Source of the DNA: Verrucomicrobiota bacterium
GTDB taxonomy: Bacteria > Verrucomicrobiota > Verrucomicrobiia > Limisphaerales > VHDF01
Direction: 5' to 3'
Length of the DNA stretch: 64,000 bases
NCBI GenBank assembly: GCA_016871495.1
Contig: VHDF01000011.1
Coordinates: forward strand, 12,384-76,383
The notes under the pieces were generated by a model that saw only the letters and a list, made by a program, of their open reading frames with translations, searched no databases and was not told the DNA's origin. A program made the translations under genes and the position numbers. Positions 2,534 through 38,978 of this stretch are shown here, piece after piece (position 1 is the stretch's first letter; every line of letters starts with the position of its first letter).

Positions 2534-3832
2534 ATGCGCCTGGCCGTGCTCGCGGCACTTTTACTCGCGCATGTCGCCGGCGTTGGAGCCGCGGCTTCGC
2601 GGCTCCCCCAAATCATCCAGAGCGCGTCCGGCCAGTTCGTGATCCAAGGGCCTCGCCCCGTGCCGGGAACCCCAGAGCGAAATGATCAATTGACGGACGA
2701 TGTCCTGCTCCAGCTCGACACGGATCTGCTCGCGATCGCTTGCGAACGCGTCAAGAGGGCTTTCCTTCGTGAATTGCAATTGCCGGACCAATGGCGCGGC
2801 CGCGTCACGCTCAAGATCGAGCCTTCCTGGGGCGAGGATCGGGCCATTCGCCTTGAAAGCGCCCGTTCGCAGGGAGGCTGGCGATATCAGGCTGCCCTTC
2901 CCCCCAAAGTTTCCTCAAAAGTCCTGGTCCGTTACCTCGCCGAATTGCTGCTGCAAGAGTTCGCCAATCGAACTTCCGGGGATCGCCAGGCCGAAATTCC
3001 ATTCTGGCTCTCGGAAGGGCTCAGCCGCCACCTTCTCGCCGGCTACAAAACGGATCTGCTGCTGCGTCCTCAAACCCGCTCCGTCGTCAGCATCGCCCAA
3101 GGGGATCCGCTCGAGATGGTACGCACCTATTTCTCCACCAATCGTCCCCTGACGATCAACGAACTCAGCCTGCCCGGGCAAGTTGAGCTCGTGGCGGGCG
3201 GCGGCTTGACTTACTCCCTGTCGGCCCACCTGCTCTATTTCGAGCTCAGTCGTTATCACGCCAATCGTGCCCCCCTGGTGCAATACCTGAGCCGCTCCGG
3301 CCATTATCTCAACTGGCAAAGTGCCTTTCTCGAAAGCTATCGAAATGTCTTTCCCACCATGCTCGACTTCGAGAAATGGTGGGCCATCACGGTGGTGAAT
3401 TTTACCGGCCGCGATCCCCGGCGCTCGTGGAGTTTTCAGGAGAGCATGAAGCAACTCGACGACATCCTCAAAACTCCGGCTCAAATCAGCATCCAACCGC
3501 GGGCCGCCGCCCAACATTCCACCGTCTCCCTCCAAACGATGATCAACCAATGGGATCCGGCTCAGCAAACCTTCCTGTTCCGCAAGAAAATCTCCCAGCT
3601 CCACCTGCTGAAAACGCGTTGCGCCGAGGAAATCCTCCCGGTGGTCGAAGACTACCGGCTAACCCTTGACACTTACCTGGCCCGCCGCCAACGCGCAGGA
3701 TACGCCCCGGCCACCAAAAGCCAGGGCCTGCCCAGCCTCGTCGTCCTGGCCCAGGAAACCGTCCGGAGGCTCGACGAGGTCGACGGGCGCAAAGCTGCGC
3801 TCCGCCCGGTCGCGCCCGCCCCATCCCGCTAG
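2534..3832 (+). CDS. Secreted hypothetical protein, peptidase-MA-like fold lacking HExxH
   Basis: AGGAG before ATG 2534; signal peptide; P-F-W-L-S-E-G-L motif, but the upstream helix reads YLAELLLQEF with no His. Confidence 0.65.
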   Translation: MRLAVLAALLLAHVAGVGAAASRLPQIIQSASGQFVIQGPRPVPGTPERNDQLTDDVLLQLDTDLLAIACERVKRAFLRELQLPDQWRGRVTLKIEPSWGEDRAIRLESARSQGGWRYQAALPPKVSSKVLVRYLAELLLQEFANRTSGDRQAEIPFWLSEGLSRHLLAGYKTDLLLRPQTRSVVSIAQGDPLEMVRTYFSTNRPLTINELSLPGQVELVAGGGLTYSLSAHLLYFELSRYHANRAPLVQYLSRSGHYLNWQSAFLESYRNVFPTMLDFEKWWAITVVNFTGRDPRRSWSFQESMKQLDDILKTPAQISIQPRAAAQHSTVSLQTMINQWDPAQQTFLFRKKISQLHLLKTRCAEEILPVVEDYRLTLDTYLARRQRAGYAPATKSQGLPSLVVLAQETVRRLDEVDGRKAALRPVAPAPSR

Positions 3833-36300: not shown

Positions 36301-37587
36301 TTAGACACGAACTTGACCAGTTCCGTACCCGAGCCATTTGTACGTGGTGAGTTCCTCCAATCCCATCGGGCCTCGAGCGCCAATCTTATCCGTGCTGATG
36401 CCGATCTCCGCGCCCATGCCGTACTCGCCCCCATCCGTGAAACGGGTGGAGGCGTTCCAATAAACCGCGGCGGAATCGACTTCGGCAAGAAACCGCTCGG
36501 CGGTTTCGCGGTTGGCGGTCACAATCGTGTCCGAATGACTGGAACCGTAGCGCCCAATATGGTCGATCGCGGCGGAGCAGTTCTCGACCACGCGAACATT
36601 CAGGATGTAATCGTTGTACTCGGTATGAAAGTCCTGCTCCGACGCAGCCGCCAGCTTCCAAGTCGCGGCGTTGGGTTGGGCCTGGAGAAGGGTCAAGGCA
36701 TGGGAATCGGCGCGAAGTTCGACCGATTTCTCAGCCAACGCTTTCGCGGCTTGAGGCAAGAACTCGGCAGCAACCGACTGATGAACCAGTAAGGTCTCCA
36801 TCGCATTGCACACCGCGGGACGATGCGTTTTCGCGTTCACGACGATCCGCAGGGCCATGGGCAAATCCGCCTCACGATCCACAAAAACATGGCAAACTCC
36901 CTTGAAGTGCTTGATCACCGGAACGCGGCTGCATTCCGCCACCGCCCGGATCAAACCCTCACCCCCTCGAGGCATGCACAGATCCACCAACCCGGTGAGA
37001 CTCAATAACGCCTTAATCGCCTCCCGGTCCGGGGTGGAAACGACTTGAATGGCGTCCTCAGGAAACGCCGGGGAAGCTTCGCGGCCCGCTTCGATCAAAC
37101 ATCTCGCGATGCACTGATTCGAGCGAATCGCTTCCTTGCCCCCCCGCAACACCGTGGCGTTCCCGGACTTAAAACAAAGCGCGGCGGCATCCGCCGTGAC
37201 ATTGGGCCTCGATTCGTAAATGATGGCGATCACCCCAATGGGCGTGGAAACCTTGCGCAACCGCAGGCCGTTGGGTCGAATTCTTTCCTCCAAAACCCTC
37301 CCGGTGGGATCGGGCAAAGCCGCAACTTCCCGCAAACCCTTGGCCATGGCCGAGATGCGGGCCGGAGTTAATTGAAGACGGTCCAGCATGGCCTGCGAAA
37401 GCCCGACCGCTTGCCCGTCCCGCAAATCCTCGGCATTCGCGAGGACCAAGGCATCAACGGACTTTTCAAGCCGGTCCGCCATCGCGAGAAGGCATCGATT
37501 CTTCTCCGCCGGAGTAAGCCGGGCCAGCGCGCGTGCCGCAGCCTTCGCCCGCTGAGCCAGGTTCGTCATTTGCTCGATCAAACTCAT
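36301..37587 (-). CDS. proA: Gamma-glutamyl phosphate reductase
   Basis: PIGVIAIIYESRPNVT, LRGGKEA, PRGGEGLI, PAVCNAMET, NASTRFTDGGEYGMGAEIGIST, RGPMGL. Confidence 0.97.
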   Translation of the reverse strand: MSLIEQMTNLAQRAKAAARALARLTPAEKNRCLLAMADRLEKSVDALVLANAEDLRDGQAVGLSQAMLDRLQLTPARISAMAKGLREVAALPDPTGRVLEERIRPNGLRLRKVSTPIGVIAIIYESRPNVTADAAALCFKSGNATVLRGGKEAIRSNQCIARCLIEAGREASPAFPEDAIQVVSTPDREAIKALLSLTGLVDLCMPRGGEGLIRAVAECSRVPVIKHFKGVCHVFVDREADLPMALRIVVNAKTHRPAVCNAMETLLVHQSVAAEFLPQAAKALAEKSVELRADSHALTLLQAQPNAATWKLAAASEQDFHTEYNDYILNVRVVENCSAAIDHIGRYGSSHSDTIVTANRETAERFLAEVDSAAVYWNASTRFTDGGEYGMGAEIGISTDKIGARGPMGLEELTTYKWLGYGTGQVRV

Positions 37588-37637: not shown

Positions 37638-37666
37638 TTGACGATGGCTGTCAGAGGGCATAGAAT
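37638..37666 (+). promoter_or_regulatory. Near-consensus sigma70 promoter on the strand opposite to both flanking genes
   Basis: TTGACG-17nt-TAGAAT. Confidence 0.7.
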
Positions 37667-37672
37667 GATAAC

Positions 37673-37747
37673 GTCAATGGGGTTAACAGTCTCGGTTCCT
37701 CCTGCCCGGTGGTACTGCTTTTTTGGGGCCACCGGGCCTTTTCTTTT
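37673..37747 (+). ncRNA. Candidate small RNA (~75 nt) with anti-SD motif
   Basis: Lies between the promoter above and a + strand terminator; TTCCTCCT at 37696-37703 directly 5' of the stem. Start inferred from promoter spacing. Confidence 0.55.
37704..37747 (+). terminator. Intrinsic terminator, + orientation
   Basis: Stem GCCCGGTGG/CCACCGGGC followed by CTTTTCTTTT; no U-tract on the minus-strand side. Confidence 0.75.
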
Positions 37748-37760
37748 CCCCTTTTGAAGG

Positions 37761-38978
37761 TCACCCAAGAAAAGCCTTGTGGATGACCTTGGTCGCCAGA
37801 TCGCCTTTGGCCAGATCCACGATCACGGAAATCTTGATTTCACTGGTCGAAATCATGTCGATGTTGATGCCTTCCTTGGCCAGCGCCTCAAACATCCGCG
37901 CCGCCACTCCGGAATGGCTTTTCATGCCCACTCCAACAATGGAGAGTTTTCCGATTTGTTCGCTGGCGAAAACCTCTCGCACGCCAATCTCGCTCTTCAA
38001 CCCGTCGATCACTTTACTCGCCTTCAAGAGTTCGGCCTTCTCGACCGTAAACGACAAGTCCGTCAAGGGCTTGCCGGAGCCATGGCTCGCGTTCTGGACG
38101 ATCATGTCCACGTTGATGGCAGCCTCACCCAAGGCCTTGAATACCTTGGATGCCATGCCGGGCTGGTCCGGCACTCCGGCCAGGGTCACTTTGGCTTGAT
38201 TCTTGTCGAAAGCCACGCCGCGAATGACGACGTCCTCCATGCTCTTGGTTTCCTCTTTCACAATCGTTCCTGGGTTGTCGTTCAAACTCGAGCGCACTTC
38301 AAAAACCACACCGAATTTCTTGGCAAATTCAACCGACCTCGACTGCATGACTTTCGCCCCCAAACTGGCAATCTCCAGCATCTCGTCGTAGGAGATCTCC
38401 TGAAGTTTGCGCGCACCGGAAACCACGCGGGGATCAGCAGTATAAACCCCGTCCACATCCGTATAAATCTGACAAAGATCGGCCTTCAAAGCCGCGGCCA
38501 GCGCGATGGCGGTCAAGTCGGATCCTCCCCGGCCCAGCGTGGTGATCTGGCCCTCCGACGTTTCGCCCTGAAAACCCGCCACAATCACCACCTGCCCCGC
38601 GTCAAGCAACGCGTGGACCATCCGCGGGCTAATATTCTTGATCTTGGCCTTGGTGTGCACTCCATCCGTCACAATGCCAGCCTGGGCGCCCGTCAACGAC
38701 GCAGCCGGTACATTCAGCGCATGCAGCGCCATCGCCATCAGGGCAATGGTCGTCTGCTCGCCCGTCGCCAGGAGCACGTCCATTTCACGCTCGCTCGGAA
38801 GGGGCATGATTTCCTTGGACAGCTTGATCAAATTGTCGGTCACACCGCTCATCGCGGAGACCACCACAACGACCTGATCCCCGCGTTGCCGATACTTCGC
38901 CACGCGGTTCGCCACGTTCTTGATCCGCTCCGTGTTGCCGACGGAGGTGCCGCCGTACTTTTGAACAATAAGGGCCAT
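37761..38978 (-). CDS. lysC: Aspartate kinase (with ACT domains)
   Basis: MALIVQKYGGTSV, VVSAM, AGFQG, TLGRGGSD, YTDVDGVYTADP, MISTSEIKIS. Confidence 0.96.
   Translation of the reverse strand: MALIVQKYGGTSVGNTERIKNVANRVAKYRQRGDQVVVVVSAMSGVTDNLIKLSKEIMPLPSEREMDVLLATGEQTTIALMAMALHALNVPAASLTGAQAGIVTDGVHTKAKIKNISPRMVHALLDAGQVVIVAGFQGETSEGQITTLGRGGSDLTAIALAAALKADLCQIYTDVDGVYTADPRVVSGARKLQEISYDEMLEIASLGAKVMQSRSVEFAKKFGVVFEVRSSLNDNPGTIVKEETKSMEDVVIRGVAFDKNQAKVTLAGVPDQPGMASKVFKALGEAAINVDMIVQNASHGSGKPLTDLSFTVEKAELLKASKVIDGLKSEIGVREVFASEQIGKLSIVGVGMKSHSGVAARMFEALAKEGINIDMISTSEIKISVIVDLAKGDLATKVIHKAFLG

Follow-up and report, generated by a model that had tools for sequence, protein, structure and literature searches.

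The window analysed here, a stretch of 64,000 nucleotides (positions 12384-76383 of contig C11), belongs to a metagenome-assembled genome obtained from lake water (5.06 Mb, 60.7% GC, 97% complete). Within it, the genes proA and lysC are separated by a spacer of 173 nt that holds, on the opposite strand, the elements of a putative small RNA (sRNA) gene. The features of the locus are the following:

36301-37587, minus strand: proA, glutamate-5-semialdehyde dehydrogenase (PF00171 and names of homologs), with its ATG at 37587
37638-37643, plus strand: -35 box TTGACG of the sRNA promoter; TTGAC stands at the equivalent position in 28 of 28 family members
37661-37666, plus strand: -10 box TAGAAT, after a 17-nt spacer; nAnnnT is found 16-18 nt past TTGACn in 27 of 28 members
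about 37672-37675, plus strand: predicted transcription start (inferred position)
37667-37751, plus strand: full-length match to covariance model R1 (model positions 1-87, 58.6 bits, E = 1.3e-14)
37676-37697, plus strand: 5' hairpin AAUGGGGU / GUCUCGGUU, weakened by four G.U pairs and two mismatches (window row of alignment A3)
37691-37702, plus strand: core CTCGGTTCCTCC, of which CGGTTCCTC is invariant in every member (invariant columns of the alignment)
37698-37704, plus strand: linker CCUCCUG, putative pairing site, single-stranded in the family structure
37704-37737, plus strand: terminator hairpin GCCCGGUGGU...GCCACCGGGC, 10 bp, -21.5 kcal/mol
37738-37748, plus strand: U-rich tail CTTTTCTTTTC of the intrinsic terminator; tails are T-rich in 26 of 28 members
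37761-38978, minus strand: lysC, aspartokinase, beginning MALIVQKYGG, with its stop codon at 37761-37763 (AA_kinase and ACT domains were identified in the ortholog of relative L003)

The proA 5' end and the sRNA promoter are placed back to back, the lysC stop codon lies 13 nt past the sRNA tail, and any transcript reading through from lysC to proA would have the sRNA as its antisense. A preliminary description of this DNA had pointed to a TTGACG-17-TAGAAT promoter on the plus strand, to a GC-rich stem with a U-tract that works in that direction only and to two neighbours on the minus strand, and we found the three of them in place. The promoter (37638-37666) is a 10/12 match and the best sigma-70-type match within the 6 kb scanned. 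The hairpin is directly followed by CUUUUCUUUUCC on the plus strand; in the minus-strand reading AGGAGGAACC comes next, without any U-tract. The spacer also holds a possible proA promoter on the minus strand, GAGACT-17-TATCAT (8/12), whose -10 box at 37665-37670 overlaps that of the sRNA by 2 bp, and the predicted divergent starts of proA and the sRNA are about 15 bp apart. Additionally, a GTG that overlaps the lysC stop TGA (GTGA, 37761-37764, minus strand) opens an ORF of 37 codons that runs through the spacer and reads ...GQEEPR.... This 37-aa ORF was discarded as a candidate gene because it is not conserved and is absent in L003; the likeness of its EEPR to the protein tails described below is a consequence of the shared RNA core and not evidence of a gene. 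A lysine or proline leader, or a small minus-strand ORF after AGGAGG, was likewise rejected since no canonical start follows, and a repeat or mobile element was dismissed because the genome contains this spacer only once.

Dinucleotide shuffling of the 173-nt spacer produced a promoter match of at least 10/12 on either strand with P = 0.007, and a terminator at least as strong as -21 with P = 0.009. At the genome level, terminator and promoter scans were run after a crude whole-genome gene calling that gave 4,028 ORFs. Promoter matches of at least 10/12 numbered 62 on both strands together, with 25 in intergenic positions; 21 of these 25 face a downstream gene on the same strand, which argues that this consensus is meaningful in this organism. 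Hairpins with a T-tract at -18 kcal/mol or stronger were about twice as frequent in the sense orientation as in the antisense one within tandem spacers (47 vs 21). The unit between proA and lysC is the only case in the genome of an intergenic promoter of at least 10/12 paired with a terminator 25-350 nt downstream, and the number of such pairings expected by chance was estimated at about 0.04 per genome. It is unlikely that this promoter-hairpin unit arose by chance.

When 400 genomes of the order were searched by blastn with the 123-nt element, weak and consistent matches appeared in about 20 of them (61 nt, 74-78% identity); these matches span the core, the hairpin and the tail and are located at a locus other than lysC-proA. 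Covariance model R1 was built from an alignment of 18 sequences (A2) with a two-hairpin consensus; the window sequence is one of the 18, so its score is somewhat inflated, and the blastn link is independent and earlier. R1 matches full length in 298 of 401 genomes of the Limisphaerales/Pedosphaerales (Verrucomicrobia subdivision 3), including 189 of the 250 high-quality genomes and 131 of 166 genera, almost always once per genome, and the listed E-values are mostly between 1e-10 and 1e-23. When its own whole genome was searched, the window copy was the sole R1 match (E = 5e-13). In 300 genomes from the rest of the phylum R1 gave no match at E <= 1e-5, and an exact-pattern scan of species genomes returned carriers under the names Limisphaerales, Pedosphaera or subdivision 3, together with a few bins that are evidently mislabelled. 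As far as these genomes tell, the predicted sRNA gene is specific to the order. The element had been taken for an orphan, which cannot be maintained with homologs in so many genomes.

The suggestion that it belongs to no known family was borne out. Rfam 15 at gathering thresholds gave no match over the whole window, nor was there a relevant one on seven homolog loci at E up to 1; below threshold, the best matches in the local region (E = 2.1 to 9.9) were to generic hairpins only. A search of the literature on sRNAs in Pedosphaera or Limisphaerales found nothing relevant. To our knowledge, no regulatory RNA has been characterized from Verrucomicrobia subdivision 3, although these bacteria are common in soil, peat, freshwater and sediment metagenomes. 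Judged by its homologs, the putative RNA is a new family, of a kind already known, that is missing from Rfam 15.

The members of this family share a definite architecture. In relatives oriented like the plus strand of the window, a TTGAC[ATG] box is followed 16-18 nt later by TAnnnT, and then by a 5' hairpin of consensus AAUUGAGGU-loop-ACCUCGGUU, a core CUCGGUUCCUC that is invariant in all but two of these relatives, and a long GC-rich terminator hairpin, whose arms differ among lineages yet stay complementary, ending in a T-tract. Among 28 aligned members, TTGAC is present in 28, the full -35/-10 geometry in 27 and the T-rich tail in 26; the tail of the window copy has T at 7 of 8 bases. The distance from the -10 box to the core is 21-33 nt in 26 of the 27 members with full geometry (26 nt in the window), the exception being L073 with 15. 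Within the invariant CUCGGUUCCUCC core, the UCCUCC part is single-stranded, and typical members leave the linker UCCUCC(Y) unpaired with a probability of about 0.85-1.0.

The structure statistics were obtained from the 28-member alignment A3, which was fitted to R1, and this favours the structure. In A3, 93.7% of the cells are paired, 10 pairs have compensatory changes and none of 500 shuffles reaches the observed values; when the partner columns are slid, pairing falls to 30-44%. The two helices behave differently: helix 1 (95.2% of cells paired) is conserved in sequence and hardly covaries, whereas helix 2, the terminator, has changes on both sides in 8 of 15 pairs, and its covariation is plain in the raw sequences. 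Paired columns contain far more G.U than A.C combinations (69:1 in helix 1, 68:3 in helix 2, 137:4 in total), an excess which indicates that the helices were selected in the RNA of the window's plus strand and not in the mRNA strand. A complete and independently transcribed plus-strand sRNA, as had been proposed, is therefore supported by the homologs, the promoters and tails, the covariation and the G.U excess. We have little doubt that this is a real RNA gene under selection, a statement made from sequence comparison, as no transcript has been observed.

In the relatives, the gene occupies a constant position. In the 22 relatives examined, all 22 have the sRNA gene convergent with an MMPL-family gene (PF03176) and overlapping its 3' end in antisense; the best NCBIfam match of this neighbour is the HpnN-like hopanoid-associated RND transporter (TIGR03480, 1e-102 on the C-terminal half), of the ~860-aa class. 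The other flank, also in 22 of 22, is a divergent gene of ~440 aa without a family match. In most lineages the transporter ORF reads through the antisense of terminator, linker and core, which make up its last ~20 codons, and ends in ...PSGDNARSTLGREEPR followed by the stop codon. These tails, wholly encoded antisense to the sRNA gene, are similar at the protein level (...KKQPSGDNARSTLGREEPR and stop; L097-L116 and L105). The ORF ends sooner in the f39 members, L106 and L114 (...GWRKEKAQ and stop), where the RNA sequence is conserved equally or better. Furthermore, the synonymous positions of GAG GAA CCG AGG are invariant. The persistence of the core where the ORF stops earlier, together with these synonymous positions, implies that the RNA is the primary constraint, and the C-terminal tail of the HpnN-like protein appears to be read off, or overprinted on, the putative RNA gene.

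The window copy is not at this canonical locus; it is flanked by lysC and proA, which are arranged around it in the same way. Contig C80 carries the HpnN-like ortholog of this genome, which ends in ...RRKSTD and stop and lacks the element, as does the ortholog of the ~440-aa neighbour on contig C7. We propose that the gene moved to the lysC-proA spacer in this genome with its core, promoter and terminator kept, and the copy is counted as a family member in spite of its locus, which is context and not a property of the RNA. The copy is diverged. It scores 58.6 bits vs 75-92 for most members, in its hairpin 1 the strong GAGGU/ACCUC of the family is replaced by GGGGU/GUCUC, which contains G.U pairs and two mismatches, and the GUGCAUU motif conserved in the terminator loop of the family is missing. 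The exposed seed described previously is thus only partly sustained: a single-stranded CCUCC between two hairpins is found across the family, whereas in the window copy the unpaired probability of CCUCC is only 0.25-0.7 and it is able to pair with GGGG at 37679-37682. The seed had also been given as GUCUCGGUUCCUCCU, which has to be corrected to CCUCC(Y), because CUCGGUU is mostly inside the 5' hairpin. The window copy could be decaying. Its rare promoter match, intact 12-nt core and strong terminator, and its being the sole copy in the genome, lead us to read it as still functional, with some doubt.

The near relatives do not help to follow the gene at its present position. The nearest proA homologs are only 77% identical (73-77% for L002, L003 and L004). 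Neither L002, whose lysC-proA gap has 34 nt (1211-1244), nor L003, with an unalignable gap of 183 nt (2818-3000), contains the element there, the model finds no match in either of the two, and L004 has no alignable element; in 20 more distant relatives lysC does not adjoin proA. The L003 spacer contains a different GC-rich hairpin without a T-tract. The lysC-proA spacer turns over quickly in near relatives; lysC-proA is probably an operon in this clade. The check by synteny and covariation suggested in the preliminary description therefore gave a divided answer, with covariation in the family terminator and no synteny, since the nearest lysC-proA relatives lack the element and the relatives that carry it do so at another locus. 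Sequencing runs add little: 20 DNA runs match the locus and are nearly clonal, which leaves no power to detect constraint, the sole variant in the spacer being T37719C, in the terminator hairpin loop, present in contigs of two lake metagenome runs. Among the RNA runs searched none matched the lysC-proA locus of this organism, and the freshwater metatranscriptomes that contain its 16S words had no contigs on lysC-proA. Ten RNA-labelled runs contain two or three of four family words sampled from relatives. In four of them, compared with the locus of a relative, the contigs with the core are shallow and unstranded and extend past both ends of the sRNA.

Taken together, we propose that the gene would encode a single-copy RNA of ~75-80 nt, whose transcription would start from a sigma-70-type promoter of its own (37638-37666) and finish at an intrinsic terminator (37704-37748). 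The predicted molecule would have three parts: a 5' hairpin, a short single-stranded linker with the invariant UCCUCC, and the terminator hairpin. The exposed stretch containing CCUCC may pair, independently of Hfq, with G-rich (GGAGG-like) sites of at least one conserved partner RNA. A conserved, order-wide sRNA that acts by base pairing is, in our judgement, the best explanation overall and a probable one. The core is kept after relocation and also where the opposite strand is non-coding, which argues for a partner elsewhere in the cell and not only for the overlapping transcript. That the RNA acts mainly in trans through CCUCC is nevertheless an inference on mechanism for which the balance is nearly even and leans slightly to the negative. 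An Hfq-dependent trans-acting sRNA was rejected: Hfq (PF17209) gave no match in this 97%-complete genome, and control genomes did give matches. RNase III is encoded in the genome, and aragorn found no tmRNA gene in the assembly.

Whether the targets are ribosome-binding sites is more doubtful, and we hold an anti-Shine-Dalgarno role, which is inferred only, to be rather unlikely. The genome barely uses Shine-Dalgarno sequences (GGAG, GAGG or AGGA at -17 to -5 precede 13% of first ATGs vs 11% of internal ATGs) and has no detectable Hfq, so occlusion of ribosome-binding sites is less obvious than had been assumed. Of 65 genomic sites of GGAGGAACC, none stands 4-11 nt before a candidate start, without enrichment before start codons, and elsewhere in the genome complementarity to the RNA never exceeds 13 nt; the 9-mer matches listed by the target search were uninformative. 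The anti-Shine-Dalgarno idea specifically is weak for now. A more elaborate and speculative version, to which we give little credence, is an order-wide, single-copy riboregulator that would mimic the anti-Shine-Dalgarno of 16S rRNA, with a free CCUCC beside an internal GAGG:CCUC duplex, in a lineage where initiation led by Shine-Dalgarno sequences has nearly disappeared; it would act on the few genes left with strong GGAGG sites or on the ribosome, and under the constraint on its gene the antisense strand would have been taken over as the HpnN-like tail (...GREEPR and stop).

Other explanations of the same data must be weighed. The RNA may be real and act only in cis, convergent to the read-through transcript with which it pairs (from the hpnN-like gene to the next gene in relatives, from lysC to proA here), uncoupling co-directional genes through an RNase III site or transcriptional interference, as GadY does for gadX-gadW. 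The 22 canonical loci and the window agree in geometry: the RNA is antisense, two co-directional genes enclose it, and its promoter and the downstream gene stand back to back; the minus-strand hairpin has no U-tract, so read-through is likely, and the 34-nt gap of L002 implies an operon; the genome encodes RNase III and not Hfq. GadY is reported by Opdyke et al. to be encoded opposite to two co-directional genes, in the spacer that separates them. GadY (E. coli, RF00122) overlaps, pairs with and stabilises the gadX mRNA (PMC7373196, citing Opdyke et al., 2004). Any cis-antisense RNA is bound to match its target, regardless of the sequence it has, however, and this explanation leaves unaccounted for both an invariant core across about 300 species, including those where the opposite strand is non-coding, and its retention after a move to an unrelated operon. 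Such a GadY-like role fits the constant geometry and cannot be excluded; as the only role of the RNA, we regard it as unlikely. Even less weight falls on an RNA that binds a protein or the ribosome, its GAGGU/ACCUC hairpin and free CCUCC imitating the 3' tail of 16S rRNA or the duplex of Shine-Dalgarno and anti-Shine-Dalgarno and thereby titrating or guiding a conserved factor. An order-wide invariant core of 12-13 nt would more typically point to a fixed partner than to mRNA targets that change, the 5' hairpin has a conserved sequence and almost no covariation, no regulon of ribosome-binding sites is visible, and the 3' end of the 16S rRNA is canonical (GGAUCACCUCCUUUCU). Direct evidence is lacking, though, and no co-occurring protein gene was identified, the neighbours being a transporter and an uncharacterised gene, which makes this option improbable to us.

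It could also be argued that there is no functional RNA at all, and that the conservation reflects the C-terminal peptide of the HpnN-like protein plus its 3' flank, the window element being a translocated relic. Core, linker and terminator are indeed antisense to the last ~20 codons of the HpnN-like gene in most relatives, with a tail similar at the protein level, and the window copy is diverged and absent from the nearest relatives. A peptide does not account for the invariant synonymous positions, nor for equal conservation where the ORF ends upstream, nor for a conserved 5' arm, loop spacing and -35/-10 boxes that lie outside any ORF; the G.U excess is a mark of selection for pairing on the non-coding strand, and the window keeps a 10/12 promoter and a strong terminator. 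We consider it very improbable. The product could finally be a small hydrophobic peptide from the ORF of 26 codons starting at ATG 37677 (MGLTVSVPPARWYCFFGATGPFLFPF), which had been named as a possible product. This ORF exists, and its ATG is a few nt past the predicted transcription start, nearly leaderless; yet its stop (37755-37757) is about 8-10 nt beyond the expected termination at 37744-37748, the ATG is missing in other members (AATTGAGG), and there is no Shine-Dalgarno sequence and no shared frame, because the loop of hairpin 1 varies by 4-9 nt across the family. We have excluded it in practical terms. A type I antitoxin was rejected as well, since the short ORFs of the spacer are not conserved in frame or start and the overlapping gene in relatives is a large transporter. 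An order-wide base-pairing sRNA thus remains the reading that we prefer.

Such an RNA has parallels in other bacteria. RsaE/RoxS-type sRNAs of Firmicutes (RF01820) are short, have their own promoter and an intrinsic terminator, carry unpaired C-rich seeds resembling the anti-Shine-Dalgarno, and are expected to be Hfq-independent. The Limisphaerales RNA is also predicted to be short, with its own promoter, an intrinsic terminator and an unpaired C-rich motif able to pair with G-rich ribosome-binding sites. It differs in that it belongs to another phylum and gives no Rfam match (window at E up to 10, seven homolog loci at E up to 1), has a single CCUCC linker instead of repeated C-rich loops, and its gene is usually antisense to a transporter gene, in a host poor in Shine-Dalgarno sequences and with no target identified. 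Like GadY, it would be a small RNA whose sequence overlaps a neighbouring mRNA; in contrast, there is no Rfam similarity between them, GadY is not known to have an order-wide invariant core, and the Limisphaerales RNA kept its core after a change of operon, something not required of an RNA that works purely in cis. The only weak Rfam matches are to the DUF1874 RNA motif (RF02953; minus strand, a hairpin followed by GGAGGA; 16.6 vs a threshold of 42, E = 2.1) and RybB (RF00110; plus-strand terminator hairpin and U-tract; 14 vs 40, E = 3.9). Both concern a generic hairpin only, and the G.U asymmetry in favour of the plus strand contradicts the DUF1874 orientation. Bidirectional promoters that arise from the symmetry of the -10 box have start sites 7-25 bp apart (Warman et al., 2021, as summarised in PMC10268837), and the predicted proA and sRNA starts fall inside that range. 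The sRNA promoter differs by its near-consensus -35 box at 17 bp and by its conservation, together with the RNA, in 27 of 28 relatives with unrelated neighbours, so it is not a by-product of the proA promoter, an origin that we rejected as the main explanation.

The family described here is single-copy and present in about three quarters of the sampled genomes of the order, and its clear promoter, structure and invariant exposed motif make it annotatable with a covariance model. It may offer an entry into post-transcriptional control in a lineage without Hfq and poor in Shine-Dalgarno sequences, linked to the locus of an HpnN-like lipid transporter, and would be a clear-cut case of an RNA gene whose antisense strand supplies the tail of a protein. 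Direct testing will be possible if cultured Pedosphaera or Limisphaera carry the gene.

Some minor observations concern the surroundings of the gene. TTAACA is found upstream of the core in 13 of 28 members and, in the loci read, it stands ~10 nt before the -35 box as TTTAACAT. At the canonical loci, L103, L098, L115 and L107 among them, the spacer that separates the sRNA promoter from the ~440-aa gene contains a conserved palindrome-like motif (GATAACGTTATC, TAACGATAACG) ~70-95 nt ahead of the -35 box, and this motif is likely an operator for an unidentified regulator; a word resembling it, GATAACGT, occurs in the window at 37667-37674, at the predicted transcription start. The genome also contains three more intergenic units with a 9/12 promoter and a strong terminator, C1:156293-156456 (plus strand), C50:16710-16912 (minus strand) and C16:43559-43825 (plus strand), each on the strand opposite to both neighbours. 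None of the three shares sequence with the present family, and they may represent further genes for small RNAs or small proteins.
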